From the NCBI GenBank assembly GCA_965178125.1, contig OZ237761.1, positions 186,001-250,000 of the forward strand: a stretch of 64,000 nucleotides of DNA, given 5' to 3'. The notes beneath the pieces were generated by a model that searched no databases, had not been told where the DNA came from, and worked only from the letters and a program-made list of their open reading frames with translations. Origin of the DNA: Bilabrum cf. latius (taxonomy: Eukaryota). Of this stretch, positions 38,083-61,431 are shown piece by piece (the stretch's first letter is position 1; every line of letters begins with the position of its first letter). The position numbers and the translations under genes are program-made.

Positions 38083-39458
38083 TAAGAGGTCAATATTAAC
38101 CACTTCACAACATCTTAAGCCGTAGTCCTTCATAATGTCCTTCACTTGAACATAATAATTTAATAGCTATTTATTCATATATCTACCTAATTTAATACCT
38201 TCGCGCCGTTAATGTCTATCTGTTAGACCTTTACTTTACTTAATCTGTTGAGTGAATCCCTAGCCTAAGTCTTAGGATATGCCCGCCCGAAATTGCGGAA
38301 ATATATAGTCATTTAAGAATATATGTTCGCAATTCTGGGCGCGTAGGTGTATTGAGTTTTATATTATGATTTGGTTTTAAGTATCAATTGACATTTACCA
38401 CTTTAGAAAATAACTAAATAAATACTTAAAGAGATTGACAGAAGTATTAAAGTCTTTTTAATACTTCCAATGAAAAATTTAAATTAATAAATAAAACTAA
38501 ACTAATATATCAACTTAATTTATCTCTTTTTTTATTACTTGTCAATCTATACTTAAATAATTGAATATTTAAATATAACTAGAAGGAGATATTAATCACT
38601 TTATAAAGTCTTTTATATGTCATCTCTTCAAAACTTCAAATATAAGGGTATCCCCTTAAAAATACATTCTTTTATCTATCGCCCGAAATTGCGGTAATAT
38701 TATAGCTATTCAAGATATATTTCTGCAATTCTGGGCGCGTAGGTGTATTGATTTTTATTTTTCATAATTCTTTAAATATGTTAAAGTCCTTTGTTTGAGT
38801 ATATGATATAAAGGAATACAAAGCGGGATAACTTAAAAATGATAAATGTTTTGACGATGACTTTAAAATGACTCAATGAACTGGTTTATGTCAAGTGTAT
38901 TACTTTGAAATGATTAATCACTAGATTAAATGGAAAATATAGGATAATAAAATATGGTATAGTATAATACTAGCGCCCGAAATTGCGGTAATATATTAGG
39001 ATATTAAGATATATTGTCGCAATTCTGGGCGCGTAGGTGTATTGAGTTTTATATTTTGTTAATTTTGACATAGTTATCTTATAGAGGTGTAATTTTGTAA
39101 TAAAGATATTTCTAGTATGTGCTATATTAAATGTCCAGAAATGACGGCCCGAAATTGCGGTAATATATTAGGATATTAAGATATATTGTCGCAATTCTGG
39201 GCGCTTAGGTGTCTTCAATAATTAATAATCAACTACTTCTTTATTTTGATTAATTTTTTTGACTTACCGTTCATTTTATTGACCACTTAACGGGATATCA
39301 CAAAAAGACTTAACCACTTGACGAGATATTTTAAAATAACTAATAATAAATATGACCGCCCCAAATTGCGGAAATATATAAGTATCAAGAAAATTATGTT
39401 TGCAATTCTGGGCGCTCACCCGTATTCAATTTTACATATTCACTAAGTCATACCACTT
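37982..39458 (+). repeat. Left terminal inverted repeat (~1477 bp)
   Basis: Near-identical reverse complement of 59954-61431, except for the terminal 101 bp, which is in direct orientation. Confidence 0.95.
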
Positions 39459-39485
39459 ATTTTAAGTCATTTTCTAGTTTAAAAA

Positions 39486-39518
39486 ACTTAAAGATTTATC
39501 TAGTATATTACTATAGTA
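39486..39518 (+). promoter_or_regulatory. Putative viral promoter class 1: ACTTAAA about 33-48 nt upstream of ATG
   Basis: Recurs at 39486, 39723 and 39968, and on the minus strand upstream of 59189 and 46797. Confidence 0.55.
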
Positions 39519-39728
39519 ATGCCAGATATTAAAGATGTATTAAAATAGGTTCAAGACATTATGGAAGATTATCAAAGACTCAAGGAATAGGAGACCAAAA
39601 AGAAAGAAGCTATTAAAAAAGCTAAATAGAAATATTACCAAAAGAATCAAGAGAAATGGAAGGGGTACTATTAGAAGAGAAAACAGGTTAAGGATGAACC
39701 AGATACAGAAGGATTAAATAAGACTTAA
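39519..39728 (+). CDS. Small basic viral protein (69 aa, 4 in-frame TAG)
   Basis: MPDIKDVLK*VQDIMEDYQRLKE*ETKKKEAIKKAK*KYYQKNQEKWKGYY*KRK..., ends at TAA. Confidence 0.75.
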
Positions 39729-39760
39729 AAATATATTCTATTATTATAGTATTATTAATA

Positions 39761-39973
39761 ATGGATTTAATAGATACCAAATCAAATAATCAAGTTATCA
39801 ATAAACCAATACATCAATTACAAGACTTACCAATAGAGTTTCAAGAGACTATAAGTTATTTACTAATCGGGAAATCCCCAGCAGAAATTGAAAAATTTAA
39901 AAATACTCTAGTTGTGCGCGAAAATCCATCTCAATCCTTTAAGCCAAAATAGTGCGTCTAGAAAATGACTTAA
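39761..39973 (+). CDS. Small viral hypothetical protein (70 aa)
   Basis: Track ORF extended through two TAGs to TAA 39971-39973. Confidence 0.6.
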
Positions 39974-40003
39974 AAAATTATCTTTAGTATAGTATATACT
40001 AGA

Positions 40004-42802
40004 ATGACGACCGAACACATATCTAACCCTGTTTATTTCTCAATAGCTCACAACTCTAAACAACCACTTATTAAGTCTTGGTAGAATTTGGAATCTACTA
40101 AACTTATCACCAGAAAGTCAAATCTTAATGTTGGATTACTTACTGGAAGACGTGCAGGTTTCTTTGTCCTTGACTTAGATTGTGAAAAAGAGAAAAATAA
40201 AACTGAATTTCAAAATGGTAAGTTTATTGCGGAATATGGTAGTGTTGATAAGTTTATTCAAGAGATGAATACTTACACTGTCAAGTCTCCCAATGGATAT
40301 CATTTGTATTTTAAGTATGAAGAAGAGTTTAGTAAGAGGTCAGTAAATAGAAAAGAACATATAGATGTGATCACAAATGATAGCTTTATCATGTGTCCTC
40401 CTAGCTCTATCAACGGTAAGAAATACGAACTAATACAAAAGACATCCGTGAAAAGAATACCAACTGACGTCAAGATGTTCATACTACAAAATATCTATTC
40501 ACCACAACTTACAGCTGAAGACTACCGTTATATGATTAAACCCGAAGAATACAAACAATACTTATATCAATTAGGTAAAGAGTATTATTCTAATTCATAT
40601 AACTGGCATCTAGTTTGTAGAGCTACAAGTTATATCGCTAAATACTTAAATCCAGTAGATGGTAATAAGGTATATGATATATTTGATGAATGGAGCAAAC
40701 AAGACGTAGAAAGCTATTAGTCGACTAAGAACAAGATAATTTTTACTCGATTATTACAAAATTCCACTTTTCAATGTGTTGAATGGTTCTTTAACTAGTT
40801 AGATAGTGAAAAGAAACGACTTAGCCTATATTATCGATACAAGATATTCAAGAATAAAGTAGTCAAGAAAGTCAATTAGAAGATTGACCGTAGATATTTG
40901 ACTGCTGACGACAAAGGTCGTTATATTAAATTCTTTAAGAAAGGTATCAACTATGCCGTTAAGTCGGGGGCTGGTTCTGGAAAGACAACTGCTGCTAATG
41001 ATTTATTTAATAGAGTAGATGACAGCTTTTTATCAGTTGTTAGTCGTATTTTATTAGGTAAGCAATAGATGCGTAGTCTTCCAAAATCAACTAAATTCTA
41101 TCAAGACCATAAATACAAATAGGGTGATAGTATTGTTATTACTCCTGAAAGTATTGTTAGTCTTAGCAATTATAACTTTAAGGATTATATTGTCTTTTTA
41201 GATGAGTTTAATAGTATCTTAGAACACTGTTTAAGTTCTACGACTTTATATGGTAGGCGACCAATGAGTTTCATTACTCTTATTCGTGCTCTTACCACTT
41301 GTAAGTAGTTCATAGTAGCAGATGCTGACTTATCTCAAGATGCTCTATATTTCTTAGAATTATTAAAATTAGATTATCAATATATTAGGAATGACAGAAA
41401 CAGGTTCAAGGGCACCAAAACTGTATTTGTTAATGACGAACAGACTTTTAGAGATGAGTTAATGAAACACAAGAAATTTATGCTTGCTAGTGATAGTAAG
41501 ACAAAAGCTGATATAATCAATGAGTTAATTAGTCTTAAAATTATAGATAACGAGAAAGATAAGAAATTAAATAAAATCTTAATACTTACAGCAGAAAGCG
41601 AAGACAAAGACTATGATATGGATTTGTTTGATATCATTATCTTCTCACCTAAAGTCATTTACGGGATAGATAGCACTATGACTAGACCAGTCTTTGGTTA
41701 TTTCAAAGGTCATACTATCACACCTCCCCAAATGGTTCAATAGCTTAACAGATGTAGAAACCCATCACATATCACTATATTTTTTGATTACTAGAAAGGA
41801 CGATCTAGCACATATGAAAGTCTTTCACAAGTTAAATCTTTTATGGCTACCTCTTTAAAAGACTACGAAGAATTAGTTAAATTTGTCAGTGATACATATC
41901 CCGACTTCAACGAGGTAGAAGTAGAAGACAAAGTAGAAGAAGAAATGAGCAAAGTTAAAATCATATTCAAGAAACTATATCGTAATTATCTTTACAAGGT
42001 AGATTGTTATAAGACAAACCCTAAATTACATATGATCAAGTAGTTAATTGATACCGGTTATGACGTGTCTTATGATTTATCTGTTAAGATCACCAGATGT
42101 AAGGATAAAGAAATCAAAGATACCATTAAAGAAAAACAACTTGAAAATTTTGATATTAATTGTCTTAATGTCAAGAAGATTAATAAATATTTAGACTTAG
42201 ATGAAGGTGATATTGACAAATACAAAGAGTACTTTATTAATAAAGGTAAGTTATCTAATTTATTTAATTTCAATAAATTCTTTAGACAAGATGATAAGCA
42301 CTTACTTGTGAAAGCAATTAATAAAGGCGAGTTTGATATTATCAATGCTAAGTCTAGTTCTAGAAAATTAGTCTTACTTAATAAGATGATTGATACTTTA
42401 GGTCTTAAAAGAACTAATCTTGATTATAATATCAAAAAGAAAGTATTAGATCAAGACTTAACAGATGAATATAGGACAGTGTATGACTGCCAAAGAAGAA
42501 GTAAAGTTGACTTATCCACTGATAAAGGTCTTTATTACGAAATACTTAAAGTATATAAATCAATGTTTGGGAAAGACATATTTATGACTTGTAAGAAAAA
42601 GAAAATTAACTATGATGTAGAATTTAATTAGGATATTATTGATGAGATGGAATATATCTGGTCTAACAAGAAAAAGACTCGTGAAGTAGATATATTTGTT
42701 GATGATGAAGAGGTTCAATTACCCGATGAAGAGATAGAGGTTGACTTAGACCCCGCTTTATTTGTTGATGAGGATAATGATCCACTAGAACAACAAAATT
42801 AA
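40004..42802 (+). CDS. Bifunctional primase-polymerase (AEP) fused to a UL9/origin-binding-protein-like SF2 helicase, 932 aa
   Basis: KQPLIKSW*, NVGLLTG...FVLDLD and GYHLYF (PrimPol); PriCT-like IFDEWSK; KSGAGSGKTT, FLDEFNS, ADADLS, FSPKVIYGID and VQ*LNRCR helicase motifs; 11 in-frame TAG and no TAA/TGA until 42800. Confidence 0.85.
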
Positions 42803-42864
42803 ATTATGACTTATTAATAAAAAACTTAATAAGACTTAATAATACATACCTTATATAAAATGAC

Positions 42865-43215
42865 TTAGTGGTCTCTTTTTGTCTTTTTAATTTTTTCTTC
42901 TCTCTTCTTCCTTTCACATTCACTTCTTTCAACACGATACATCAGCTCCTAGACGTGTTTCACTTGCTCTTCATATTCTAACTGTTCCAATGTACTTTCG
43001 AGTTTCTTGATAATATTGTCGAATTTAAAACTAAAGACATTCTAACGATAACCATCACCTTTGTCTTTTGGTTTCATCCATACATATTTATCAAAGTGAT
43101 TCTCAATACTTTTACCTATACTACTGACTACATCATCGACACCTACACCTTTAACAAGACATTCATCTATAAAATTTTGAGATAGTTCAATTTTGATATC
43201 TTCTTTATCTGACAT
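42865..43215 (-). CDS. Small viral protein, MSDK family paralog A (116 aa)
   Basis: ATG after the shared promoter block, 2 in-frame TAG, ends at TAA. Confidence 0.7.
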
Positions 43216-43246
43216 TACTATATATATAGTGGATATTTTTTGGCGA
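43216..43246 (-). promoter_or_regulatory. Putative viral promoter class 2: CGCCAAAA..TATC..CTATATATATAG just before ATG
   Basis: Repeated upstream of ATGs at 43215, 44158, 44723 and 58295, and partially at 58615 and 55709. Confidence 0.65.
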
Positions 43247-43384
43247 AAGTAATAAACTAGTCTTAAGATATGACCGCCCGAAATTGCGGTAATATTATAG
43301 CTATTTAAGATATATTTCCGCAATTCTGGGCGCGTAGGTGTATTGAATTTTTAAATTTATTTGAATATAATATTTTTTACCTCT

Positions 43385-43706
43385 TGGTGCGTTGTGGTCT
43401 TGGTCTAGTGATATCGTGATTGTTTCACAAAGTCAAGGTCGTGGGTTCGATTCCCACCACTGACATCGCCGTAAGTCGTTCTGTAAGTCATTTTCATGAC
43501 AAAGCACACGTCTTGCAAGTCTTTGAAGGGAGTTTGGATACTGTAGAAGTAGTCGTAAGTGGTTGTAGCAGACTTAGTCGTAAGACTTAATAGGGATAGC
43601 GGTCCACAGCTGACATTCGCATCTCCGCTACAACAATGACTTACGAATGACTTCGCCAAGTAGTCAAACCATCGGTATAATTACTAGCTCAAAGAAATTT
43701 TTTTTT
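43385..43706 (+). ncRNA. Candidate Pol III-type structured RNA: tRNA-like 5' domain, long hairpin and T9 terminator
   Basis: A-box TGGTCTAGTG 43401-43410; AGGTC variable loop; T-arm GTGGG-TTCGATT-CCCAC 43441-43457; nested helices 43520-43695; T9 at 43698-43706; locally raised GC. Confidence 0.6.
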
Positions 43707-43768
43707 ATTACATAGATATGACTTAATATTAATAACTTTAATATTAAGACTTTATTATTAAGACTTAA

Positions 43769-44158
43769 TTATGACATATGTTTTTTATATTCTTTAACAC
43801 TCCTATCCATAGCATCCAGAATCATTTGTCTGTGATCTTCTTCAGTTAATGGTCTTCTTTTCCTGTTGCTATCACTTAACTTACAATGAACGTATCCCAT
43901 AATCGCGTCTTGTCTTTCATCAGTTAAGTCTTTAAGTAATTCAAAAACTTGATTTGCTTTATAGTCGGTCGTGTATGAGAACTCCATCATTCCATCTTTT
44001 GGAGTCGGTTGACCTATTTGTCTTAACACTATCTCATTTCCTTCTATCTTACTTGTGATTTTTCCACATAACATCTTACCTATTCCATCCCAATCAAGGT
44101 TTACACTTGATACAAGACTTTGAGAAAACGATATTTTTAAATCTACTTTATCTGACAT
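43769..44158 (-). CDS. Small viral protein, MSDK family paralog B (129 aa)
   Basis: True ATG follows the duplicated promoter block; ends at TAA. Confidence 0.75.
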   Translation of the reverse strand: MSDKVDLKISFSQSLVSSVNLDWDGIGKMLCGKITSKIEGNEIVLRQIGQPTPKDGMMEFSYTTDYKANQVFELLKDLTDERQDAIMGYVHCKLSDSNRKRRPLTEEDHRQMILDAMDRSVKEYKKHMS

Positions 44159-44300
44159 TACTATATATATAGTGGATATTTTTTGGCGAAAGTAATAAAC
44201 TAGTCTTAAGATATGACCGCCCGAAATTGCGGTAATATTATAGCTATTTAAGATATATTTCCGCAATTCTGGGCGCGTACCCGTATTGAGTTTTTAATAA

Positions 44301-44723
44301 TTAATCCATATTAGGGGGTTTCTTATACAAGATAGCAGGGTCGCATCCATTTGTTGGAAAGTCTGCTGGATACCACCCCCATACTACTTTATAAATATCT
44401 GTGCTCGTGTCGTGTTCAACTTTATGATAAAAAATACAATCATAATGAATACCATTCTAATTACGCACCTCTTGCTCCATCTCTTCAATTATCTATCCTA
44501 CCTTTAACTTTGTAAAGCCTCCTTCACTTACATATGTCTTTATATGACCTCTATTATTTACTTGTATCTAATCTTTATCTATTACAATGTCTTCAGGATC
44601 TCCTTCAAGTTCATCATCTAAGTAAACCTTTTGAGATTTAAGTGTTGGGTCTTCTCTATGTGGTAAGAATAAGAATGAATACTCCATATAAAGTAAGTCT
44701 TCACACGGTGATACTGCTGCCAT
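44301..44723 (-). CDS. Viral hypothetical protein (140 aa, 3 in-frame TAG)
   Basis: MAAVSPCEDLLYMEY...KKPPNMD-TAA; same promoter block; absent from the ORF track. Confidence 0.7.
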
Positions 44724-44910
44724 AACTATATATATAGTGGATATTTTTTGGCGTAATATTTAAACTAGTCTTAAGGTATGACCGCCCCAAATTGCGGTAA
44801 TATTATAGCTATTCAAGATATATTTTCGCAATTCTGGGCGCGTACCCGTATTGAGTTTTTAAATTTAGTCAATATTTATAACTTTTAAATATTAATTAAT
44901 AATTTACGAC

Positions 44911-46797
44911 TCACATATTGAGCTACTTTCTAAGTTTCATAAGTTGAGCCTTAGTTAATTTCTTACCTCCACTGGTCAAAAGACTTCCACCACTAGTTAA
45001 AAGACCTGCTCCAACACGTTCAGCTAGGTCATTCACTTCATCGGGTAAGTATTCACTTACTGCTTGTCTTGCTTTACGAAGAGCTGGTTTCACTTTATCA
45101 AATTTAGCTTTAGCTTTCTTTCCAAAGTCTACCACTTTACGTCCTAAGTCTTTAGCTTTGTTAAAGGCTCTCTTAAAGAATTGCATCACTTTACGACGTC
45201 TTCCACCTAATACGTTCTTAGAGTAGTTCATATTAGAAAATGTATAATTAGAAGGTTTAGCCACTTTCTCAGGGTCAACAGAAGCACTATCTTCACGCCA
45301 TTCAATAGCGGCACCTCTAGTATTCACGATAATCTTGTCATAGGCACAGAATAATTGAGCTTTATATCCTTGAGACATAGCAGCGGTTGGGGGTTCGTCA
45401 TAGGCTACTTGAACACGAATACTAATAGGGTCAGCACTGTTGCTTTGAATAGTTTCAGGAGTATTTAAATCACTAAGTCTAAATAAGAGCCAGCCATTAG
45501 ATCCGTATACTTTAGAAGCACCTCCTACAGTTACATCTAAGTTAGTAAAAGAAGCATACTCACTATTTGATCCATTTCTTTCACTAAGTCTAAAGATATC
45601 GTCTTGTGTAAGTTCTCCTAAAATAGAACCCTAAGACCTAAGTTGTACTTTAATATTGTTAATGGCAAGTGTTCTATGAGGTGTACCACTAGCTTCTCCA
45701 TATTGAGAATCAACTAAGCACACAGCAAACCAAGAAGGGCAAGTCTAAAGTTGATAATTATTAAAAGTATGGACACCTTTAGTAGTGATAGGATTATCAA
45801 GTTTAGGCTCTTCATGTAGTTCAAAGTCAACAGAGTTGTAGAATATTTGTTTAGGTACTTTCTTCAAGAAGTTAAGATGAGTATTATAAGTAAAGACATC
45901 AAAATGGATCTAGCAATCGGATAAAGCAAAAGCATAGTCTCCATTCCAATCACTTGAAGTATTAAACATCTTATCAATTAAGTTATTTCTCATTTGTAAA
46001 TTAACATTTAATTGTGGATGATCAACAAAAGGTCTAGCATTACCACCCATCATATATTGGAAAGGACGTGCAAGAAGTGCTTCAGAGATTTCAATATGTA
46101 ATTTGACATAGTCTTGAGTTGGTGTTACATTATTATTAGGTATTGGAGTATTAGCATCCACTTTTTCAAGTGTTGCGCGGTAATTCTTACCAGGACCGCG
46201 AGCTTCCATAATACTATCATCATTTACACCCCATTGAAGGACAGACTTAGCAAGACCATTTGCGGCAGTATTAAATTCCCAAGTGTTATCAGCCTAAAAG
46301 ACAGGACTTATTTGTGCTAGAGTGGCACGGTCAAGACTTCTAGCTATTAAATTGACTAATTGATAAGGTGATGAACTACGAGATAAGTCTCCCATTTTAA
46401 CTGTGGAACTTGTGATCATTGAATTTACCATAAATGTAGAAGGGGCTACCTTATTGACGATATCAGTTTGAGCTACTGCTCCATTGTTCTAACTATCATA
46501 GATGTATACGTCAAATGAAACTCTTAGACGGGGATTACTGTCAGTCATTCCTTGATTTGATGGCACTACGAAAGTATAATTACTTCTAAATGCATTAGTT
46601 GCGCTAGAGTTACCACCATCTGGTTCGTAGTGATTTTGAAACTTGGAAGAGTATCCAAGGGTAGTTCCTAGAGTAATAGCTTGACTATCACCCACAAAGT
46701 TGAGTTTTTCGTCAGCTATTTGAGTTACTGGTAGTTCTGAGACGTCATCTACGACTTTGCTTTGTGCTGCTACAGGTACATTATCCATATCAGACAT
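44911..46797 (-). CDS. Virophage major capsid protein (double jelly-roll), 628 aa
   Basis: Three same-frame track ORFs joined by TAG; size, position after the penton, beta-rich sequence, and a basic C-terminal tail after VLGG with LLTSGG repeats. Confidence 0.85.
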
Positions 46798-46839
46798 TAT
46801 AAATATATTAAGACTAAAGATATTTATTTATTTTTTACT

Positions 46840-47766
46840 TTAAGTTATTAACTTTTTACTTTTAAATAGAGCTTTTATATTAAGTCCTTGTCCAAAAGTA
46901 AAGGGTATTTCGTATAAGTTTCCAAAAGTATCTCTAAAATACGGTACTATACTATAACTATTAAATGCTGATCTATAGAACTATTGCCATCTATGATTTC
47001 CTCCACTACTAAAGTTTATTTTAATAAAACTCGTTCCTGTTGTATTGTCTATCTTGAAATCACTTAAGATATTTTCACTTTGTATCTCTGTACTAGATGT
47101 ACTTTTATATGATGGCGTAAATTCTGGAAGTATTGGAAGTGATGGACTAATAATTTGAATATACTCCATAGTAGGAAACTAATCTAAGGTAGAAGCACTC
47201 TATTCATTATATCCATCTAATAGATTTATATAAGTATCACTCTTGATGTCTTTACCTTCATCGTCATATTCAAATGTCTCAAAGATAGAGAATAAAGGAA
47301 AGTTAAAACTTAAAGTCCACGCACTTGTAAAAGCGGCTAAACGGGTGAAACTAAATGTTTTAGTCTTACCGTGATATTCAAATACTATACTATCAGTTGG
47401 AATACTAGCATCTCCACATAAATCACTAAGAGTATTATTAAATTCATTAGATAGGGTCTTAAGACTATAATATAACGGCTTAGTTAAGACAATATTACGA
47501 GTGTAAGTAGTTCCATCACTCTTCTTCACAAACGACATCTTATAAATTGACTAATTATCGCTATTCTTTACTTCTTTACTTGCTACAAATAAAGGAATAC
47601 GACATTTAAGAGTCCATCGGTCAAGTGATAATAAGTAGTTTTGTGAATTTGTCAAGATATTACCTTGACGCTGTTCATGTATTGATACTGGTCTATTAGT
47701 ATTAATAGATGTTATAGTATCCTATGAGTTAATATAAAAGATATCTGGTTCTTGAATCTCTACCAT
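46840..47766 (-). CDS. Minor capsid (penton) protein, 308 aa
   Basis: Lies between protease and MCP; IISPSLPI..E and ILSDF motifs; single frame with TAG read-through. Confidence 0.8.
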
Positions 47767-48126
47767 TCTATAACATTTATCAAGAAAATAAGTCTTGTCT
47801 AATGCCCCAAATTGCGGTAATATTATAGCTATTTAAGATATATTTCCGCAATTCTGGGCGCGTACCCGTATTGACTTTTTAAAAAAGTTTTTATTAATTA
47901 TTTGACTCATTGAAAAAATCCAATATTCCGAAATTTTAAAAATTTAGTATCTTAAGATATAGTATAATACCAGCGCCCCAAATTGCGATAATATATTAGG
48001 ATATTAAGATATATTTCCGCAATTCTGGGCGCGTACCCGTATTCATTTTTATATTTTAGTCTTTTTAATATGGCCACCTTATAGATATCAATTTTCAATA
48101 TCTAAAAATTTATGGTATATGTCATA

Positions 48127-48675
48127 TTAACTAATTATCAAAGTAATAAGTTCATCATTATCTAGTCCTCCTCCATACTTTTTAAAAGCCTTCTTTAATT
48201 GACTATTAAACTAATCATTCGTCAAGTGATGGAATAATATCCTGAGCACACACCACCTCCCGCATGTGGCAGAGTTATTTGATATTAATTGATTCTTTTG
48301 ATTTGAATAGTCAACATTAATACCAGCATCTAATACGTGATCTATTAGAAGACTACTTCTATCATATAGCTTCTATGGGTCTATGACTCCACCTACAACT
48401 GGAATATGAGTATCAGGTAATTGACCATAACTATCCCAAAAATAAAGAGTATTCTTTGATTTGTTAAATATGACCGCAGTATAATGACCGCTCATTGTTG
48501 CTCCTTCTACTAAGTTAGGATAATAAAGGACAAATAAAGGATTTTCATCTAGAAATTGTCTGATGTTATTAGTATCACTTATTTCTTCATACATTATAAC
48601 TGGTATATGCTACTTTGTAAATGTAAAGTATAGTCTTTGTACCTCTTCAGGACTTAATGCAGTGGTTATATCCAT
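48127..48675 (-). CDS. Virion maturation cysteine protease (adenain/Ulp1-like), 182 aa
   Basis: SGHY, FWDSYG and Q...ATCGRWC catalytic motifs; the catalytic Cys lies beyond an in-frame TAG at 48373. Confidence 0.9.
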
Positions 48676-48694
48676 ATACTTAATACTAAGAAAA

Positions 48695-49762: not shown

Positions 49763-49907
49763 TATATACTATATGTTAATATTTATTATTTTTCTAATAA
49801 TTAGTGGGTTCAAAAGGTATATTGTGAGAAGTAGCCATTTCAAATATTCATTTTAGAGTGCACAGTCTTAAGAATATGATTAAAATATCATATAAATATA
49901 TAGAATT

Positions 49908-51442: not shown

Positions 51443-51476
51443 ATATTAATAAGAAATATTATAGTTCTTTATTATA

Positions 51477-51920
51477 ATGGACGATTTCATAAGACAAAGA
51501 CTATAGCAACTAGGTAAATCACCCTCTAATGCCAAAGTCAACAATTTAAAAGACGAATTTAAGCAAAAACTACTTGAATTATTTGAAGACTATCAAATGA
51601 ATGGTGTTCAAGGTGGTTCAAAAGTTGGACGCTTTTTTAAAAAAGTAGGTCGTAAATTCAAGAAAGTAGGGCGAACAATTAAAAAAGGTATTAAAAGTAA
51701 TGTAGGAAAGGCAATACGAACAGGTCTTAAGTTTGTAGCCCCTGAAGTTGGTGTCCCTCTTGATGCTGCACTTAAGACTGTAGGACTTGGAAAGGCTAAG
51801 CGTAAGAGGAAACCTAATCCAAAAGCTAAAGCAAGAGGTAAATTAGTGAGTGCGGTAATGAAGAAGTATGGCGTAAGTCTAGGAGAAGCAAGTAAAATAT
51901 TAAAAGAAAATGGTATGTAA
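51477..51920 (+). CDS. Basic core/DNA-condensing protein candidate with GG cleavage site, 147 aa
   Basis: VQGG followed by SKVGRFFKKVGRKFKKVG amphipathic basic helix; very K/R-rich. Confidence 0.65.
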
Positions 51921-51959
51921 ATTTAATAATATTATCTATTATCATAATATAATTATACG

Positions 51960-53402
51960 ATGTCTAAAAAAAGAACAGCAGTATTGGAAGACTTACTCGA
52001 TGGACTTGTGGAAAGTAGAGCCCCTACAAGTCAAGCAAGACGAAAGGTAAGAAACGAAGAGAGAGCCATAAGAGCAGCTATAGGAGAAGCTAAACGAAAA
52101 CAAAAGATTCAATTAGAAGAGGACTTTATGCCATTAGAAGAAAAGAGAAAATTAAAAAGAATAGCAAATCTTATGAAAAGGACTTTAAAAAGAGTTAAAG
52201 ATAACAGTAAGAAAGGTAAAAAGTATAAAGTAGCAGATATAGATCAAGTTGTAAGACTAGCTAAAGATAATGAACTACTTGATGAAGATGCTGAAGCTAT
52301 TGCTAAGATGATATAGAATATTCCATATATGAACTCATCTAATACTCTATTTCAAAAAGGTAAAGCTGAGTCAAAACTTAACGACGCATTAAATAACTTA
52401 TTTATTGAAGCAGAAGAGATAGACAATTTACCTAAAGATGTCAAAGACTTAGAGAATGACTTAACAGTAGACTAGTTGAAGAAGTTTCTTAAAGAGAGAG
52501 GTGTAAGTGATTCAACTTTAAATGGTCTCTCTAAGGCTCAACTTAATTCAATGGCATCAAGACTTGTAAAAGTTAGACAAAGAGCAAAAGGAACACAAAT
52601 AGTACCTCTATTAGAAAGATTAGGAGATAAAAAGTCAAAAGGCTATGCTTTGGAACGATTACGAAGCCAAACTGATCGAGTTAAACTAAAAAGAGATGTA
52701 CTTAATAAAAGAATGGAAGCAATAAATGATATTTATAAAACAAAAGCCACATCTAAAGCACCAGTACTAAAAGATAGACTTAAAGCACTATTAGGTGATG
52801 AATATGATGGTGTGCCAATAGATGATATGTAGTATTATGATTTATAGAGCTTATTTCAAGATATTAAGACTGGAAGACAATCGGGACTTGACAGTAAAAC
52901 TAGATTTGTAAATTTAAATAGAATCAAGTTTGATGACGCAAAGAAAGATATTGAAAGACAATTATCACTAAGAAAAAGACAACCAAACCCATTTAGTCGT
53001 GCAGAACCGTCAGGAACTCCACTTAAAGAAAGACTTAGACGAGCTAAGGAAAAAGATCCAGACTTACGAAGAGAAGCCGCATTAAGTGATGTAATGAATG
53101 AAGCTGCTGAATAGATAGCAAGAGGTAATGAACCTTTAGATGATGAGACAGAAGGGACACTATTAGAAAGACAACCAGATGGAGAATTTGTAGCAAGCGA
53201 TGCAGGCGAAGATCTTGGTAAAGGTCAAGAAGCAAGAACAAGAGCAGCACGAGCAGCACAAGAACGGGAAGAACAAGAACAAGAAGCACAAGGTCAATCA
53301 TCTAGTGGAGCAAGTGAAAGTAAGACTGGTGAAGGTTCAGGTCTTAATAAGAGACTTGATACTCTAATATCTTGGTTAGATTCAAGATTAAGAAGTCTTT
53401 AA
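51960..53402 (+). CDS. Charged coiled-coil protein with SAP/HeH-like motif, 480 aa (probable virion core protein)
   Basis: One frame with TAG read-through to TAA 53400-53402; LTVD*LKKFLKERGV...LSKAQL. Confidence 0.65.
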
Positions 53403-53645
53403 ATGGTATATACTATAATATTTTAATTTAAAAATATTACATTGTAAGAGGTGGCTATATTAAAAATGACTAAATTATAAAAATCAATACGCCTACGCGC
53501 CCAGAATTGCGGAAATATATCTTAATATCCTAATATATTATCGCAATTTGGGGCGCTAGTATTATACTATATCTTATACTACTAACTTTTTAAAATCTCG
53601 TAATTTAAAAAAAAAATATCTAGTCTAGCTAATATAATATAAGTA

Positions 53646-54368
53646 ATGGCAGGAATATACAATCTCTTAAACAAAAATGAATATGAATTAAAGAGTAAGT
53701 CTATTGAAGTAGAATCAATTAAAGCAGAAGGCTTTGATGGAGCCGCTAACTTTGGACTTAACTTCAATGGTCAATCACTACCCTATATTATGAGTGGTAC
53801 TAATGAAGATGCTAAGTCTTTCACATGGAGAATAGGTAAAAACTCAGCATCAGCAGGTGCATCTATCTCAATTAATGTCGCAGGTGATGGAACTCAAACC
53901 AGTACTATGACAGCAACCAACTTCTTATCATTTACCGGTACACATGTTGCATCTTGTAGTGATGTTGCTTCTAGTTTACCAGCTGGTATTGGGTCAGTGG
54001 TTACTCTTGATAGTGTAGTTAATAAAGGACCCACAACTAATGAATATGTCGTAAGTCAAGCATCTCAACATTCACCACCTTTTGGAGTATATGTAGGAGA
54101 ACACCATGATGATGGTAAAGTACTTGTAGCATCTTTAGGTGATGGAGCTGTGAAAGTAAATAAAAATGGAGGAGATGTAAGTGCGGGTGATTACTTAATT
54201 AATAGTTCTGATAGTGGATATGTCTACGCGCCTAATCCTCAACCAGTCTCTGTTGATTAGACTATTGTAGCAAAAGCTCTAGTAGATGAAGACTTTTCAA
54301 GTGGTACTTCTACTGATGCTAATGGAGTAGAGTATAAAGTCGTACCTTGTATTTTCTTAACAGGATAA
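53646..54368 (+). CDS. Fibre/spike-like protein with intramolecular-chaperone (peptidase G2-like) C-terminal domain, 240 aa
   Basis: SFTGTH, SLGDGAVKV, GDYL..SS..GY and TIVAKAL pattern. Confidence 0.55.
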
Positions 54369-54411
54369 TTGAGTTTAATTATAGAAATATCTTTTTTATT
54401 AATATAATAAA

Positions 54412-55050
54412 ATGGATGGAATCAGTTCAAGCAGTGTCGTTGTAGGAGGTTTAAGTGTCTTACTACCTCTAGCATACTCTGGTGGTATGTCTTGTTGGTA
54501 GTGGTTATGGGATAAACCTTTACATAAACGTAAAAAAATATGTATCTGTGTGCCTGAAGGTAGTGGTAAGTCTACCGCTTGTCAAATATTACGGTCTAGT
54601 TCTAAAGACTGTTTACTTGTTGATTTAGATAGTACTCTAGGAGTATATGTCTAGGAGCCCGAATTACTTATGAAACTAGACGAATGTAAGTTAAAAAGTG
54701 ATTGGGGTAATTATAATATACTTAATAGAAAAGCCAGTAAAGAAGCCCTTCAATGGGTAAAAGATAACTGGTTGAATGAAGGTAGCGAGAAGAGAGTAAT
54801 ATTCTTTACTAAAGAGTTAAGTCTAGCTAATGAGTTATTTAAAAAAGAAAGTATAGTTGTATGTCTTCCATCTAATTCACTATTCTAGAAGACATTAAAG
54901 GATAAGAAAGTAGATAAATAGAAGTCTATGTTAGAAGACCGTAACTCATATATCAAAGAATTGAACCCTTCTAGCTATTACATTTATAATACTTACGAAT
55001 AGCTTCACGATAAATTGAGGAATTGCCTCTAGTTAGGGTACCAAATATAA
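54412..55050 (+). CDS. P-loop kinase-like protein with N-terminal hydrophobic anchor, 212 aa
   Basis: VVVGGLSVLLPLAY segment, ICVPEGSGKST P-loop and LLVDLD; 6 in-frame TAG. Confidence 0.6.
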
Positions 55051-55202
55051 TACAAATAAATACAAAATAATACAAAAGTCAATACGCCTACGCGCCCAGA
55101 ATTGCACAAATATATCTTGAATAGCTATAATATTTCCGCAATTTGGGGCGGTCGTATCTAACCTGTCAATTTGTATTTTTATAATTAAAATACATACTGA
55201 TA

Positions 55203-55709
55203 TTACAATTTATAATCTAGACAAATATTGTCTGGTTGTTTAGAAGTATTACATAATAGACTTAACTTTTGATCTATTTCTTTTTCTACTCCTGTTTTAG
55301 TCTTTTCGTCTTCTTGTTCCATCTCTTGGACAGTCTCGTTGATTTTATCCATATCACCGTAAGTCTTTATAAATACTTGTTTTTTCTCGGACATCTTGAT
55401 TTTGCTATCCTCCACATATTGCTCTCCTTCAATATTACATAATATATTATTAAGATGGAGATAACTTTCTGCTTTGTCATCGTGATCTGTGCTTAATACT
55501 TCAACATACTTTGTTTTAAATCTAAGTTCCAAGTTATGACGTATTTCACTCATATGTTTATGGATCTCTTTTGGGTCTTCTATTTCGCTCTCTTCATACA
55601 TTGCTATTATAGTACTTATGACATCACTAGGGTTTTCGTCTCGTATTTTAAGTATTAAACTAAAGACATCAAAGTATTCATTTAAAAACTTCCAAATTGT
55701 GTTTTTCAT
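55203..55709 (-). CDS. Viral hypothetical protein (168 aa)
   Basis: Intact ATG-TAA ORF with CTATATATATAG upstream. Confidence 0.7.
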   Translation of the reverse strand: MKNTIWKFLNEYFDVFSLILKIRDENPSDVISTIIAMYEESEIEDPKEIHKHMSEIRHNLELRFKTKYVEVLSTDHDDKAESYLHLNNILCNIEGEQYVEDSKIKMSEKKQVFIKTYGDMDKINETVQEMEQEDEKTKTGVEKEIDQKLSLLCNTSKQPDNICLDYKL

Positions 55710-55728
55710 TTACCTATATATATAGTGG

Positions 55729-56409
55729 TCATTTTAATAAGATATTTTTAAACTTTGTAAAGTTATCATGAATTTTATCACTATCACCCCAGCACACTTT
55801 AGCATACCATAAGTTGCTGTCATACATATCGGTCTCATCAAAATGAATATGTCCTAATACTCGCTTTCTCATTTTATCAGCGTGTGATTTACCTCTTCTT
55901 AAAGCATCAGGATAAGTCTATGTATTCTTTTTGTTAAAATATACCTTTGTATCATTAATCTCTACACAATAAACATATTCAGGTTTATCACTCACTGTAA
56001 GATCACTAATATTGATTTTTGGTTTTGGTTTCTCTTTAATTGGTTTCTCTTCAATGACTTCACTCACTACTTCACTACTTGTATCACTATATGTATCATT
56101 CAAATAGTCTTCCTCTTTATTATCCTCTATGTCTTCGCTATCTAATTCAACATCTTCCAATATAGCCTATTGTCGTTCTAATTGTGGAGGTTTTAACTAG
56201 ATAGGTTCTATTTTAGACGGTTGTCTCACTAAATTTATAGTTGCTATCTCGTCCCCTTCATCATCTATTTCACCCTATAAACTTGAATAATGCTTGTTAA
56301 TCCATAACATTTTTAAGTCATCACGAGACCACTTGTACTTTTCACTTAACTTGACTACTCTTTTTAGAAGGTCTTTATTTTTGTATCTTGTTATATTTAA
56401 CAATTCCAT
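55729..56409 (-). CDS. Viral hypothetical protein (226 aa), acidic centre
   Basis: Frame open through 4 TAGs to TGA 55729. Confidence 0.6.
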
Positions 56410-56639
56410 ATACTTATTATAAATAATTTCTTTGACTTTGTTTTATATTAATATGGTAAATACTAGAAAAAATTATTATTTTAAAAGTCGTATCTAAACA
56501 CTGGCTAACATAAAATGACATAATTATAAAAATCAATACACCTACGCGCCCAGAATTGCGGAAATATATCTTAATATCCTAATATATTATCGCAATTTGG
56601 GGCGCTGGTATTATGCCATAAAGTATATTACTAGATTAA

Positions 56640-58295
56640 TTATCTCTATCTATCAGAATAGTCTTTCGCAAGTGGTCGTATTTGGTCTTTCCCATAATCC
56701 TATTCTAATTTCTTACGGGTAATCCATTCATTAAACTTATTAGAATATCCCTTATATTTGACTAAGTATTCAATAAGTCTATCTTTATTTTGTCTTTTAT
56801 CTAAAAACTTCTCTATTGTGTCTGGTTCTACTTCTAAACCTTCAACATTATCAATTTCAGGCTCTTCACTTTCCTTGTCTATGTCATCATTTACCTTATC
56901 TTCGTGTTCTACATTGTCTATTTTCTATAACTGTGAAGCATTAAAGAATCCAGTAAGAGGTTCTCCCTCTTTGTCCATTACTTTATATTTAATCCTCTAC
57001 TTAGGATTTCTTGGTTTGGTCTTCTATCTAACAGTGAAGACTTCTCTAGACCAATTAAATAAATTTCCTTTAAACTTGTTCTTCTCAAGTAATACTCTAA
57101 CTCTATCCCCTACATTAAGATCTTTATCATTCCCGTCAAAATTATTTGATAATTTCTTATTTTCAATTCTAGATCTAACTACTTCTAAATTTTCGGGTTT
57201 CATTGCTTCTAGTGGAGACATTCCTATAGTGTTGTGTTTTCTCTTATTATATGCTCTTACTAGTCTCTATAATGACGTATGCCAAACACCATCACTGTCA
57301 TTCTTAATAGCAAAGTCTTTTCTAATCTATTCTTTTATAGTCCTATTAAGTCTTTCAACTGCACCATTAGACTATGGATTTCCTGCGATGGTGAATAGTG
57401 GTTTTATGTCATTGTCATTCATAAATTTAATATATGCCTCTTTATTAAACTCATTATCACTTAACATAACAGTCGGTTTTCTCCAATTAGGTTTCTTAAA
57501 TAGTTTCTTCATCTCACGAATTATATTAACTAATGTCTTATCTTTTAATGAAATACTCCATAGGTATTTTGTGAATATATCCATTATATTTAATATCCAA
57601 TTATAGCCGTCATTAGTGTCTGAATACTTTTGCATGTCTATTAAGTCCAAGGCGTAAATTGAGAAAGGCTTAGTAGGTACAAAAGAACTTACTGCTGACT
57701 GTTTAGGTCGTTTTTTGGTCAATTGGTGGAGCATCTAGTTATTTAACCACTTTTCTACTTGTCGTCTTTTAATACGTTTATCTTTTTGTCTAGCTAGGTC
57801 ATATAACGCATCACGACTAACTACATTACCTTCTTCATAATATAGTTTCTTTAATATTGGTTTATAATTAAATTTGTCTTTGTCGTCCTCATCTTCTACT
57901 TCAATTAACTTACCGGTTGGTTTATTAAGTTTTTTCGTCTAAGCTTTAGTCATCTTATAAAAAAGGCGAACAAGGTTAGACTATTGAACGCTAAAATGAA
58001 CACGACTCACTAAGTTATATAAAGTGAAATAGTCTCCATCCTTCTATATTGAGTTAATTACCCCACCTCTTCTAAATAGTGGCTTTCCCTTGATATTACT
58101 TACATAAGATACATAAGAATATAAAGGTATTTTTTTAATACTTGCTTTGGTAGTTGGTACCTCTTCAAATCCTTTATCAAGTAGTCCCTTAATAGTGGCT
58201 TCTAAATTATCACTATCTTTTTGATTTTTTGTCGGTTCATCACCATACGTGTAAGATATTTTACCTCTAGTGTATGTCTTGCCTTTATTAGTCAT
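56640..58295 (-). CDS. Retroviral-type (rve, DDE) integrase with C-terminal chromodomain, 551 aa
   Basis: ALDLIDM, LSDNEF, GNP*SNGAVERLNRTIK, NWSREVF and IEKFLDKR...EYLVKYKGYSNKFNEW. Confidence 0.95.
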
Positions 58296-58615: not shown

Positions 58616-58655
58616 ATATATAAAGACGATATAATATGTTGGCGTAAATTAAACA

Positions 58656-59189
58656 TTATTTCTTATATTTCTTTCTCTTCTAGTTACAGTCATAACAAAA
58701 CCAGAAAGTGGCTCCTGGTTTAATAAGATACTTTTCACATTTCTTACATTGTGAGTATTTCCTCTTTTTATTATAACAACTAAGACAAGTCTTTTTATAT
58801 TTATGTTTTTCAATGAACTCATCGCAATCAGTGCATCTACTCTTATCTTTTAATATGTCTTTATTTAATTCGTGTTTAATGGATTTAATATGACTTTTCC
58901 AGCTACTACGTTTAACAACACAAGAGCATACATCACAAGTCTTATACATACAAGCCTTATACACATCATGATCCTTTTCGAATGTGTTATTAATACATTC
59001 AGAACCTAATTTAAATATATCACCAGTTGGGGGATACTCAACGAAATGAACTTCCTTAATTTGGTGATCACAGATACACTTTCCGTCTTCTTCTCTAGTC
59101 TCTCCAGCTGGTATTAATAGAGGGGCTATCTTATTCCAGTCATTAATCTTTAGCTTATTGATTATGAAGTTACGACATTTATAGCACAT
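58656..59189 (-). CDS. Cys-rich multi-zinc-finger viral protein, 177 aa
   Basis: CICDH...GSEC, C2H2-like CDVC...HIKSIKH, and several CxxC pairs. Confidence 0.75.
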
Positions 59190-59346
59190 TATAATATAGT
59201 ATATACTATAATAATATATTATTTTTAAGTCTAATTAAACGAGATGTCTTAAGCTCGATTCAAATTTGGGCGCCCGAAATTGCGGTAATATTATAGCTAT
59301 TCAAGATATATTTCCGCAATTCTGGGCGCGTAGGCGTATTGACTTT

Positions 59347-59754
59347 TTAATTTAATATTTTTAATTGTTTCAGTCTTGCGTCCACTTTAGACCTATAGTC
59401 ATCTAACCATTTTTCCAAAGTATCCCCTTTAACATACCTTTTTACATCTAATACTCCATTGGCTAGTTTTGTTAAGTAGTCCTTAATAGCATTATCACTT
59501 CCCCATAAGATTTTATGACTGTGATATTTTGAGCTATTAGTATCGGTAGTCTTCCCGTGTCTTCGGTAGTATAGGCGTCGTCTTTTAGGGTCAATATGGT
59601 TATTATCTCCATACTTACCAATCAAATCAAAGTATTGAGCATATCGTGCATCACCAAAGCTAGTGATATACTTACCATTTTTGAATACATCATATTTCTT
59701 ATTTCTACGAGTAGAGGGTTTATATTTGAATCCATCAATAATTATCTCATACAT
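59347..59754 (-). CDS. DUF5754-like protein of giant viruses/virophages
   Basis: STRRNKKYDV, FGDARYAQY, RRRLYYRRH and HKILW pattern. Confidence 0.65.
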   Translation of the reverse strand: MYEIIIDGFKYKPSTRRNKKYDVFKNGKYITSFGDARYAQYFDLIGKYGDNNHIDPKRRRLYYRRHGKTTDTNSSKYHSHKILWGSDNAIKDYLTKLANGVLDVKRYVKGDTLEKWLDDYRSKVDARLKQLKILN

Positions 59755-59762
59755 AATATATT

Positions 59763-59972
59763 ATGATACAAGATTTATTAACTTAGTATATTGTCGGTAA
59801 GACTTGTAAATTAGTTATTAAATAGGTGAAGACAACCAAGACATATCATACGACTAAATCATATGTTAAGGACTAGTTAGAAGAAGTACTCAATACATTG
59901 AAACAAGTTAAAGGACATTCTAAATGTGAACACAAGATCAAATGGACCACTTCAAGTGGTATGAGTTAGTGA
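59763..59972 (+). CDS. Possible small viral ORF (69 aa)
   Basis: Open with TAG read-through from ATG to TGA, but only 8 bp from the divergent ATG. Confidence 0.3.
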
Positions 59973-61431
59973 ATATGTAAAATTGAATACGGGTGAGCGC
60001 CCAGAATTGCAAACATAATTTTCTTGATACTTATATATTTCCGCAATTTGGGGCGGTCATATTTATTATTAGTTATTTTAAAATATCTCGTCAAGTGGTT
60101 AAGTCTTTTTGTGATATCCCGTTAAGTGGTCAATAAAATGAACGGTAAGTCAAAAAAATTAATCAAAATAAAGAAGTAGTTGATTATTAATTATTGAAGA
60201 CACCTAAGCGCCCAGAATTGCGACAATATATCTTAATATCCTAATATATTACCGCAATTTCGGGCCGTCATTTCTGGACATTTAATATAGCACATACTAG
60301 AAATATCTTTATTACAAAATTACACCTCTATAAGATAACTATGTCAAAATTAACAAAATATAAAACTCAATACACCTACGCGCCCAGAATTGCGACAATA
60401 TATCTTAATATCCTAATATATTACCGCAATTTCGGGCGCTAGTATTATACTATACCATATTTTATTATCCTATATTTTCCATTTAATCTAGTGATTAATC
60501 ATTTCAAAGTAATACACTTGACATAAACCAGTTCATTGAGTCATTTTAAAGTCATCGTCAAAACATTTATCATTTTTAAGTTATCCCGTTTTGTATTCCT
60601 TTATATCATATACTCAAACAAAGGACTTAAAACATATTTAAAGAATTATGAAAAATAAAAATCAATACACCTACGCGCCCAGAATTGCGAAAATATATCT
60701 TGAATAGCTATAATATTACCGCAATTTCGGGCGATAGATTAAAGGATGTATTTTTAAGGGGATACCCTTACATTTGAAGTTTTGAAGAGATGACATATAA
60801 AAGACTTTATAAAGTGATTAATATCTCCTTCTAGTTATATTTAAATATTCAATTATTTAAGTATAGATTGACAAGTAATAAAAAAAGAGATAAATTAAGT
60901 TGATATATTAGTTTAGTTTTATTTATTAATTTAAATTTTTCATTGGAAGTATTAAAAAGACTTTAATACTTCTGTCAATCTCTTTAAGTATTTATTTAGT
61001 TATTTTCTAAAGTGGTAAATGTCAATTGATACTTAAAACCAAATCATAATATAAAACTCAATACACCTACGCGCCCAGAATTGCGAACATATATTCTTAA
61101 ATGACTATATATTTCCGCAATTTCGGGCGGGCATATCCTAAGACTTAGGCTAGGGATTCACTCAACAGATTAAGTAAAGTAAAGGTCTAACAGATAGACA
61201 TTAACGGCGCGAAGGTATTAAATTAGGTAGATATATGAATAAATAGCTATTAAATTATTATGTTCAAGTGAAGGACATTATGAAGGACTACGGCTTAAGA
61301 TGTTGTGAAGTGGTTAATATTGACCTCTTATGTTATCCGCCAAAATGTGGAGTTATGATAACTCTATTTCTACTATATAGTAGAAATAGAGTTTACTTAT
61401 ATAAAAACTACACACATTTTGGCGGATAACA
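59954..61431 (-). repeat. Right terminal inverted repeat (~1478 bp)
   Basis: Reverse complement of 37982-39458 with few differences. Confidence 0.95.
61331..61431. repeat. 101-bp terminal imperfect palindrome, identical in direct orientation to 37982-38082
   Basis: Base-by-base comparison. Confidence 0.95.

Follow-up and report, generated by a model that had tools for sequence, protein, structure and literature searches.

Dispersed inverted repeats as probable recognition sites of the primase-helicase of a virophage integrated in Bilabrum cf. latius

Main finding

In the genome of Bilabrum cf. latius, an integrated virophage contains 21 repeats of 58 bp, each an inverted pair of boxes separated by an AT-rich spacer that is 30 bp long in every copy. 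These repeats are probably double-stranded DNA recognition sites of the virophage's own primase-helicase, reiterated along the element as sites of loading and initiation. This reading is favoured by comparative evidence, namely the co-occurrence of such repeats with the helicase among relatives, a box core shared with a second virophage family of the same genome, an apparent swap of the replication gene in one lineage and a fold match to the herpesvirus protein OBP. We infer both binding and initiation from sequence comparison.

The virophage element and its ends

The window analysed comprises 64,000 nt of the forward strand of contig OZ237761.1 (positions 186,001–250,000; assembly GCA_965178125.1). 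All coordinates given are those of the window, and features without a sign have no strand. The element (37982–61431; 23.45 kb) is a small DNA virus, a virophage, inserted in a protist chromosome. It has TG...CA ends and a GC content of about 30% compared to 55–74% in the host, and TAG is decoded as Gln in its genes. It is bordered by 5-bp target-site duplications (37977–37981, +; 61432–61436, +), which were present in 10 of 10 element copies having both ends intact. Assignment to the virophages (Maveriviricetes) is based on a virophage-type major capsid protein (MCP; 44911–46797, −; Pfam MCP_V20_C, E 3.2e-7, above the cut-off), a packaging ATPase (48695–49762, −; AAA match) with a cysteine protease (48127–48675, −; a weak Pfam match, with H64, D81 and C138 invariant), and an rve integrase with a chromodomain (56640–58295, −; rve E 8.8e-8) together with terminal inverted repeats (TIRs; 38064–39458, +; 59954–61349, −) and the target duplication. 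The 308-aa gene adjoining that of the MCP (46840–47766, −) has no Pfam family match and is a probable minor capsid protein, given its position and its homologs adjoining the MCP of co-resident virophages. Numerous relatives of the ATPase and protease were found in IMG/VR, while scans of this database with the single MCP and with the exact repeat motif gave no match, and a scan with an SF3 alignment gave no confirmed relatives. No tRNA or Rfam family above gathering score was found within the element (ARAGORN, Rfam). Contigs of four sequencing runs cover positions 37700–57699 and are uninformative on transcript ends or expression.

Both ends of the element form imperfect hairpins of 101 nt (37982–38082 and 61331–61431). 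The left is a flip and the right a flop isomer, so the right hairpin is a direct copy of the left. Flip and flop are independent and occur in every combination among the element copies, which points to hairpin-ended replication intermediates. Such ends would allow self-priming without internal origins, and this weighs against reading the internal repeats as origins.

Structure and orientation of the repeats

The preliminary description of this DNA had listed 21 inverted-box sites, five in each TIR and 11 internal, and all were recovered here with a 30-bp spacer. Those of the left TIR, all on the + strand, lie at 38284–38341, 38680–38737, 38974–39031, 39146–39203 and 39357–39414, and those of the right TIR, all on the − strand, at 59998–60055, 60209–60266, 60381–60438, 60676–60733 and 61072–61129. 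A scan with the core pattern, allowing gaps of 18–32, gave 21 matches against 0.03 expected (100 shuffles), with no match in the host part of the window, and no single boxes were found outside pairs. Over 13 element copies of the one genome, all 272 repeats have a spacer of 30 bp (the scan returned 273 matches, one of them counted twice; an apparent spacer inversion in one element copy was this double count and was rejected).

The 14-bp boxes had been described as conserved, and they are nearly invariant in the 272 copies, with slight variation at positions 1 and 6 of box A and at position 1 of box B (T in 88 of 273 matches). Four spacer families had also been distinguished. Their common length holds; they differ from one another at 7–16 of 30 positions and share eight invariant positions as well as an ATAT/ATAT symmetry, which lengthens the inverted symmetry to ~21 bp per side. 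The spacer centre is variable and unpaired, yet its length is constant at 30 bp. The proposed check for covariation came out negative, as no Watson-Crick compensatory change was found in the stem among 31 distinct repeat units. A REP-like GTAG tail was dropped as a feature; the tail varies.

From the repeat at 50555 to that at 53498 the orientation flips, and the copy at 59271 departs from this order, reproducing the switch reported earlier at 50.6–53.5 kb. A single switch fits 10 of the 11 internal copies when the switch point is left free and 8 of 11 when it is held at the centre. Taken alone this single-switch pattern is weak, the free fit being matched by 5.5% of random strings. Polarity following transcription was considered and rejected (6 versus 2 in the window, P 0.29; random relative to the terminating gene in relatives, 50 of 103 pairs; opposite in the co-resident family).

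The candidate binding protein

The sole recognised replication gene of the element encodes a 932-aa protein combining a Prim-Pol domain and a UL9-like SF2 helicase (40004–42802, +; Pfam PF09250, E 8.9e-14), and this is the candidate binder. The best PDB match of its predicted model is HSV-1 OBP (E 6.6e-14, top in both Foldseek and VIA), with a Z of 19.0 and an rmsd of 3.7 over 383 residues. Model residues 279–713 align onto OBP 30–538, and the alignment stops at OBP residue 538. A profile of 29 C-terminal parts found no PDB match, so that similarity to the UL9 DNA-binding domain was not demonstrated; a single-sequence model of the C-terminal domain gave an unusable fold (pLDDT 38), and the RVKNL motif is absent from the 932-aa sequence.

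Repeats and replication genes among relatives

Co-occurrence of motif and helicase in related elements had been suggested as a check, and it is supported by the comparison of clusters and by a core shared with the co-resident family. With a threshold of at least three sites per cluster, recurrent inverted pairs occurred in 17 of the 43 clusters that have this helicase and in none of the 16 that have other replication genes (Fisher P 0.0026). In this comparison, helicase-bearing loci were taken with the helicase at their centre and control loci with capsid genes there, the replication gene was identified for only part of the control elements, whole-record searches covered all but 34 of 101 records, and five IMG/VR records were compared by their loci alone. 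No recurrent pairs were found in 39 shuffles. The other 26 helicase-bearing clusters fell under the threshold, and one of five helicase-bearing virophages chosen by ATPase or protease reached three sites. Two virophages with recurrent pairs, L175 and L291, gave no helicase-profile match, their records being an estimated 59 and 86% complete, respectively. Distant virophages and PLVs (polinton-like viruses) with this helicase have the same architecture with box sequences of their own, and similar helicases have common boxes (L075 and L140; L079 and L120).

The co-resident virophage has an MCP 22–23% identical and a helicase 32–33% identical to those of the window element. Its sites have the same AAATTGCG core and the same end-facing polarity, with a spacer of 20 bp in 62 and 21 bp in 9 of 71 sites, one helical turn (10 bp) shorter than the 30-bp spacer. 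This type had been considered free of a UL9-like helicase, which was rejected on finding the gene outside the first stretch examined.

L306, a PLV, is the sister of L307 among UL9-type elements in both the ATPase tree (0.999) and the MCP tree (1.0). It encodes an SF3 primase-helicase whose C-terminal part is 56–58% identical to those of the distant L335 and L360, and its four repeats are all of the L335/L360 type. L306 thus appears, from its sequence, to have exchanged replication gene and repeat family together in a natural swap, which is known from this one case; three shorter SF3 relatives have no repeats. A protein of 1070–1085 aa in the PLV clade was first taken for the replication gene and rejected in favour of the SF3 primase-helicase, having no family match and reading as structural. 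Since the same architecture accompanies an SF3 primase-helicase, UL9-like enzymes are not alone in having such repeats. The earlier proposal that the element's own UL9-like helicase is the binder is partly supported, by fold, co-occurrence, shared core and swap, but not as a UL9-specific feature, and similarity to the UL9 DNA-binding domain was not demonstrated.

Proposed mechanism and alternative explanations

Under the binding-site reading, two protomers or dimers would occupy the boxes on the same helix face, the bound helicase would melt the AT centre and the Prim-Pol domain would then prime, with bulk synthesis probably carried out by a borrowed giant-virus or host polymerase. In each TIR, the five sites would bring the enzyme onto the DNA next to the terminal hairpins; internal sites would be additional origins. 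Location just past stop codons would spare promoters; some sites may double as 3'-end hairpins, and optional genes may be exchanged by crossover at the sites.

Initiation and other uses of a bound helicase would be inherited alike, so co-inheritance does not tell them apart. The repeats could be bound without initiating, as polar fork pauses, transcription roadblocks or for autoregulation, with priming from the terminal hairpins only. Co-variation of repeats and replication gene would be equally expected. This reading also agrees with the occurrence of every combination of flip and flop ends, with a polarity that faces the ends in two families, with sites past stop codons and with sites on both sides of the helicase gene (five verified loci, L071, L079, L111, L116 and L120, are cited, since the longest ORF, used for counting, is not always the helicase). 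We nevertheless consider it unlikely, as inverted boxes around an AT centre at fixed spacing have the look of a melting origin in the sections of PMC12543377 drawn on here, the enzyme has a primase domain that would be superfluous at ends capable of hairpin self-priming, and many relatives show several orientation switches.

The location of the repeats raises a further alternative, that they are mainly RNA hairpins by which the transcription machinery of a giant virus would set the 3' ends of transcripts, according to the Mimiviridae hairpin rule, and were homogenised by duplication. Sites favour gene 3' ends, at a median of 19 bp from the stop, with 20 at convergent and 6 at divergent junctions; only this count is used, since the length filter skews the occupancy of junctions of at least 55 bp, where 20 of 28 convergent and 6 of 49 divergent ones hold a site. 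Among relatives, the distance to a 3' end is 30 bp or less in 59 of 97 cases. Of the internal copies, 9 of 11 are no more than 95 nt from a stop. Repeat 7 (44218–44275, +) follows that of a 140-aa gene by 25 nt, repeats 11 (50436–50493, +; box A side leading) and 12 (50555–50612, +) follow stops by 6 and 11 nt, and repeats 13 (53498–53555, −) and 16 (59271–59328, +) lie 95 and 18 nt beyond stops. Repeat 14 (55093–55150, −) occupies a convergent-gene junction, and repeat 15 (56547–56604, −; box A side leading) has the integrase stop at 35 nt. For the seven genes that have a repeat within 42 nt, no further stem comes before it, the predicted folding energy is −14.6 to −26 kcal/mol, and such hairpins are used by Sputnik (PMC6723459, in part). 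As the main function this is nonetheless quite unlikely. Mimiviridae hairpins lack sequence conservation in the portion of PMC4402537 considered, whereas the repeats are conserved, with a fixed loop length and a stem free of compensatory changes. After the MCP, the protease and two further genes, a separate AT hairpin of 14 pairs precedes the repeat, as seen with repeats 8 (44783–44840, +; MCP stop at 70 nt) and 10 (47974–48031, +; protease stop at 95 nt). The TIR clusters, in which 9 of 10 copies have no gene to end, and the six divergent-junction sites terminate nothing, the repeat family tracks the replication gene, and the sites of the co-resident family are ~85–140 nt away from stops, where transcription would enter them by the opposite side. 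Copies clustered directly past stop codons may act as poly(A) hairpins.

That the repeats are promoter-terminator or selfish cassettes shuffling optional genes by recombination, like the PeSLs of T4-type phages, is very unlikely: optional genes of 104, 141 and 150 aa do sit between direct copies, one copy being left after loss (at repeat 14; at repeat 9, 47803–47860, +, which adjoins no gene end; and at repeat 6, 43275–43332, +, 59 nt upstream of a 116-aa gene), and three copies have in common ~60 nt of promoter-like sequence upstream, but only these three gain/loss events have a repeat duplicated at both junctions, the rest being 200–990 nt from any repeat, the apparent spacer inversion was a double count, and fixed spacing, TIR clusters and the link to the replication gene are left unexplained. 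Termination and recombination, both named as alternatives in the preliminary description, survive as secondary roles given the placement 3' of genes and the gene gains and losses bounded by repeats.

Comparison with known systems and significance

The comparisons below draw on excerpts of the cited sources. The repeats resemble HSV oriS in having two inverted boxes and an AT-rich spacer of constrained length (PMC12543377; PDB 9HGI, 9HGJ), and in both cases the element itself encodes an SF2 helicase, with a common fold. They differ in being dispersed at 21 sites where HSV has few origins, in boxes unlike those of Table 1 of PMC12543377 and in lacking a third box (box III), and the virophage helicase differs from UL9 in its fusion to Prim-Pol, its unmatched C-terminal DNA-binding domain and the missing RVKNL. 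Baculovirus hrs are likewise imperfect palindromes, AT-rich and intergenic, dispersed in many copies that have been proposed to act as multiple origins (PMC6669502), whereas in the virophage, with its linear genome of 23 kb, most units stand singly and two clusters lie at the termini, and hrs are tied to the transactivator IE-1 rather than co-varying with a primase-helicase. Like the poly(A) hairpins of Mimiviridae and Sputnik (PMC4402537, PMC6723459), the repeats are hairpin-forming palindromes lying just 3' of genes, here in a virophage, but they are sequence-conserved and of fixed length with predicted loops of 6–18 nt, occur also where no gene ends, and coexist with separate, non-repeated AT hairpins. 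PeSLs are repeated intergenic stem-loops that adjoin a shared upstream motif and flank gene gains and losses (PMC4122927); here, in a eukaryotic virus, most repeats are away from variable loci and are tied to replication gene identity.

Endogenous virophages of Halocafeteria (10.64898/2026.07.28.741278) and the PLV end-module model (PMC11296320) likewise have rve integrase, TIRs, target duplication and terminal palindromes with non-pPolB replication genes, and it was proposed there that the inverted repeats are an origin recognised by the primase-helicase and turning over with it. As excerpted, both texts deal with termini only; internal sites dispersed along the genome are absent from them, as are flip/flop isomers ('flip' has 0 occurrences in the main text of the preprint). 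No prior description of such repeats or ends was found in the openly readable literature, paywalled papers and preprint supplements aside.

It is quite possible, though we hold it tentatively, that virophages and PLVs lacking a protein-primed polymerase (pPolB) follow a general two-part design of flip/flop hairpin ends and many oriS-like sites dispersed along the genome. The resident primase-helicase would dictate the sequence and spacing of these sites, which would be rewritten genome-wide when that gene is replaced. For these viruses a defined 58-bp candidate site and a candidate enzyme for replication start are now available, with natural specificity controls in the co-resident family, whose sites combine this core with a spacer shorter by one turn, and in some 25 other box families. 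At the sequence level, the independent flip and flop ends are evidence in favour of the hairpin-end model, which was a proposal in 10.64898/2026.07.28.741278. If true, the binding-site reading would give the first testable picture of how replication starts in such viruses, and origin recognition in the herpes style would then extend to UL9-like helicases beyond the herpesviruses.

The virophage element and its repeat units

The window was found to consist of GC-rich host DNA with an AT-rich insert, an endogenous virophage (37982–61431) that ends in TG...CA, has ~1.4-kb TIRs and is flanked by a 5-bp target duplication. With TAG read as glutamine, its genes encode a virophage MCP, a protease, an ATPase, an rve integrase and a 932-aa Prim-Pol-helicase, and a further gene probably encodes a minor capsid protein. 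This code, with TAA and TGA as stops, is supported by the occurrence of TAG at two glutamine positions invariant among 13 homologs and by in-frame TAG in 4 of 19 host dynein matches. It apparently extends to the host, which the abundant dyneins point to being a flagellated protist.

The repeats of the preliminary description are real. A fuzzy search located a 58-bp unit 21 times, with box A and box B separated by 30 bp and followed by a one-sided tail, and the same 21 were recovered using the core pattern with gaps of 18–32, where 0.03 would be expected. The placement was also as described, with five units in each TIR and 11 that are internal and intergenic, as was the invariant spacer, which is 30 bp in all 272 units of 13 element copies (two of them partial; one double count removed). 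At least 308 exact matches occur in the genome. Alignment of the copies for covariation, a check suggested previously, gave no Watson-Crick compensatory change in the stem across 31 distinct units, one end variant and the double count excluded, and one stem pair shows an A-T to T-G swap in two units. Eight spacer positions are invariant and lengthen the inverted symmetry to ~21 bp on each side; the middle 16 bp are variable and unpaired. A spacer that is unpaired yet fixed in length would be expected under a spacing constraint on double-stranded DNA. The TIRs (38064–39458 and 59954–61349) differ by a few mismatches and a 1-bp indel, and the distance between TIR repeats varies among element copies.

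Candidate enzyme and its association with the repeats

The units had been proposed as origin-like sites for the element's own UL9-like Prim-Pol-helicase. The best PDB match of a structure model of this protein (13-sequence alignment, mean pLDDT 76.6) was HSV-1 OBP (E 6.6e-14), and the rigid alignment of model residues 279–713 on OBP 30–538 (Z 19.0; next best match 16.3) identifies the helicase part as UL9-like. No match was obtained for the C-terminal part by structure and sequence comparison. The HSV-1 origin is described in PMC12543377 as inverted boxes 1 and 2 flanking an AT spacer whose length influences initiation. By the sequence of their boxes, the window repeats fall outside the herpes origin family.

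In loci elsewhere that have helicases of this family (24–35% identity), inverted pairs built around AT-rich centres recur between genes; they are 34–58 bp long, with a median spacing of 3.5 kb and a box particular to each lineage. In a first detector run (loci ≥9 kb, dereplicated to 109 clusters, 3-site threshold), with virophage loci chosen by protease or ATPase as controls, positives comprised 16/41 clusters with the helicase, 0/17 with other replication genes, 5/51 in which no replication gene was seen and 0/52 shuffles. Following whole-record searches, loci L269 and L172 were reassigned to the helicase group. A rerun with wider gaps upheld the co-occurrence of motif and helicase, with 17/43 helicase clusters reaching the threshold, and most therefore below it, against 0/16 with other replication genes (Fisher P 0.0026), the two locus sets being centred on different genes; positives also included 3/50 clusters with no replication gene seen (one a coding tandem repeat) and 0/39 shuffles. 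Loci L175 and L291 have repeats with no helicase of the UL9-like family detected. Polinton-like elements with A32-type ATPases account for many of the helicase positives; in a tree of 42 of the 43 helicases they are interleaved with virophages, and close helicases have boxes in common. The outer boxes of environmental virophages L084 and L269, whose helicases are distant, contain ATTGCG...CGCAAT and resemble the window's core.

In a polinton-like clade chosen by ATPase, one of two enzymes, UL9-like or SF3 primase-helicase, is encoded in the slot before one conserved gene. Units are short in the UL9 type (with boxes like ACACCATT, TTTGGCA and CCATTCTG), whereas a longer SF3 gene goes with units of GGGTAAAT type, whose boxes are ~52–57 bp apart; three shorter SF3 relatives have no repeats. 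Locus L306 is the sister of UL9-type L307 in ATPase and MCP trees, but its replication gene is of the SF3 kind, with a C-terminal part 56–58% identical to its counterparts in the distant L335 and L360, and its four repeats match theirs in type. In this one case, the repeats thus went with the replication gene. The OBP-like fold, the co-occurrence and this swap all favour the proposed enzyme, but the swap also shows that the design is not UL9-specific. That the units are helicase sites without a role in initiation is unlikely.

Co-resident virophages

A second family in the same genome (L383–L394) has 19 helicase matches, 45–47% identical in the core to the window's, and an MCP only 22–23% identical. 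Its sites retain the window's AAATTGCG core on the left, whereas the inverted box on the right is imperfect. Their spacer is 20 bp in 62/71 matches and 21 bp in 9/71, one helical turn shorter than that of the window, and they occur in both TIRs, upstream of the helicase gene and in two further places. As in the window, the core faces the nearer end with a single orientation switch. Transcripts from upstream reach the core side first, the reverse of most window copies, so site polarity tracks element ends better than transcription. The box pair lies inside a 200-bp repeated block that contains another inverted pair (TTAGAAGG, with a gap of 13 bp), and the element has a 499-aa gene whose motifs read like those of a family B polymerase. 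Clusters of three boxes occur in a third type, whose SF2 primase-helicase is more distant; they lie in both TIRs and in front of the gene for that enzyme. Dispersed inverted pairs were absent from three co-resident types with SF3 or pPolB genes (one copy each).

The genome contains 14 near-identical MCP copies alongside several other virophage types; at least six types are integrated, with differing replication genes. Genes of one type (L052–L054) lack in-frame TAG, as if derived from a standard-code host. In a 684-aa protein of another co-resident virophage (L049:991-3042), a TET/JBP-type oxygenase is fused to an FkbM methyltransferase, making it a candidate DNA base-modification enzyme. Second-family copies are nested inside window-family copies at G000:C2:77000-130000 and G000:C6:698600-749200, copies on contigs C22, C25, C1 and C38 carry other mobile DNA (375-aa and 1919-aa ORFs, and a 420-aa ORF family), and the MCP on C22 and the ATPase on C25 are broken. 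Retained in element copies is a 400-bp non-coding block (window 43350–43750, 37% GC), possibly a small RNA, with tRNA-like motifs resembling A- and B-boxes; ARAGORN and Rfam gave no match and the folding z was -1.5. A motif made up of CGCCAA and then a TATATATA-like run is shared upstream of five genes (43245, 44188, 44753, 58330, 58644 (minus strand)), probably as a promoter class, and both pieces also occur in the terminal hairpin.

Gene ends and optional genes

Most internal copies were said to lie just 3' of a gene, and 9 of the 11 do have a stop codon no more than 95 nt away. In 27 related loci, 92/98 sites are intergenic, at a median of 19 bp from the 3' end, with 20 at convergent vs 6 at divergent junctions (P 0.009). 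In the window, the four genes whose repeat is 52–95 nt away are followed by a 14-pair AT stem of their own before the repeat is reached (P 0.025–0.08), and the seven whose repeat is within 42 nt lack such a stem. Such placement favours the repeats being poly(A) hairpins, which are reported for Sputnik (PMC6723459), but the hairpin signals of giant viruses are described as not conserved in sequence (PMC4402537), and this explanation is distinctly improbable. In relatives, the way a site points is random with respect to the gene that ends beside it (50/103). As the sites adjoin stops and the genes nearest to them lack their own stem, dual use as helicase site and 3'-end hairpin is plausible. Three optional genes lie between direct repeat copies, resembling PeSL elements as these are described in PMC4122927, but other gene changes among element copies are far from repeats, and a role as gene-shuffling cassettes is very doubtful.

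Terminal hairpins and replication

Each element end is a 101-nt imperfect hairpin (37982–38082 and 61331–61431) existing as two isomers with 43 positions different. Ten copies among the window and its family (L011–L047) have both ends intact, each with a 5-bp target duplication; three are flip/flip, three flop/flop and four mixed, the isomer at one end being independent of that at the other. Hairpin isomers that vary independently are the signature of replication via closed hairpin ends, which parvoviruses and poxviruses exemplify. The left hairpin is shortened near its tip in two copies. Terminal palindromes, with hairpin priming proposed, are described for endogenous virophages with non-pPolB genes (10.64898/2026.07.28.741278), and terminal inverted repeats of entomopoxvirus-associated PLVs have been proposed as origins turning over with the primase-helicase (PMC11296320). 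A term search of the main text of the EMALE paper (PMC8547959) did not return palindrome, hairpin or origin of replication, and one of PMC12085832 returned nothing pertinent. In the openly accessible papers and preprint main texts searched, neither dispersed sites nor flip/flop ends were described for such viruses. Baculovirus hrs are presented in PMC6669502 as dispersed imperfect palindromes proposed to be multiple origins. The repeats are probably the cognate sites of the element's primase-helicase, and would act like an oriS present in many copies, as baculovirus hrs are.
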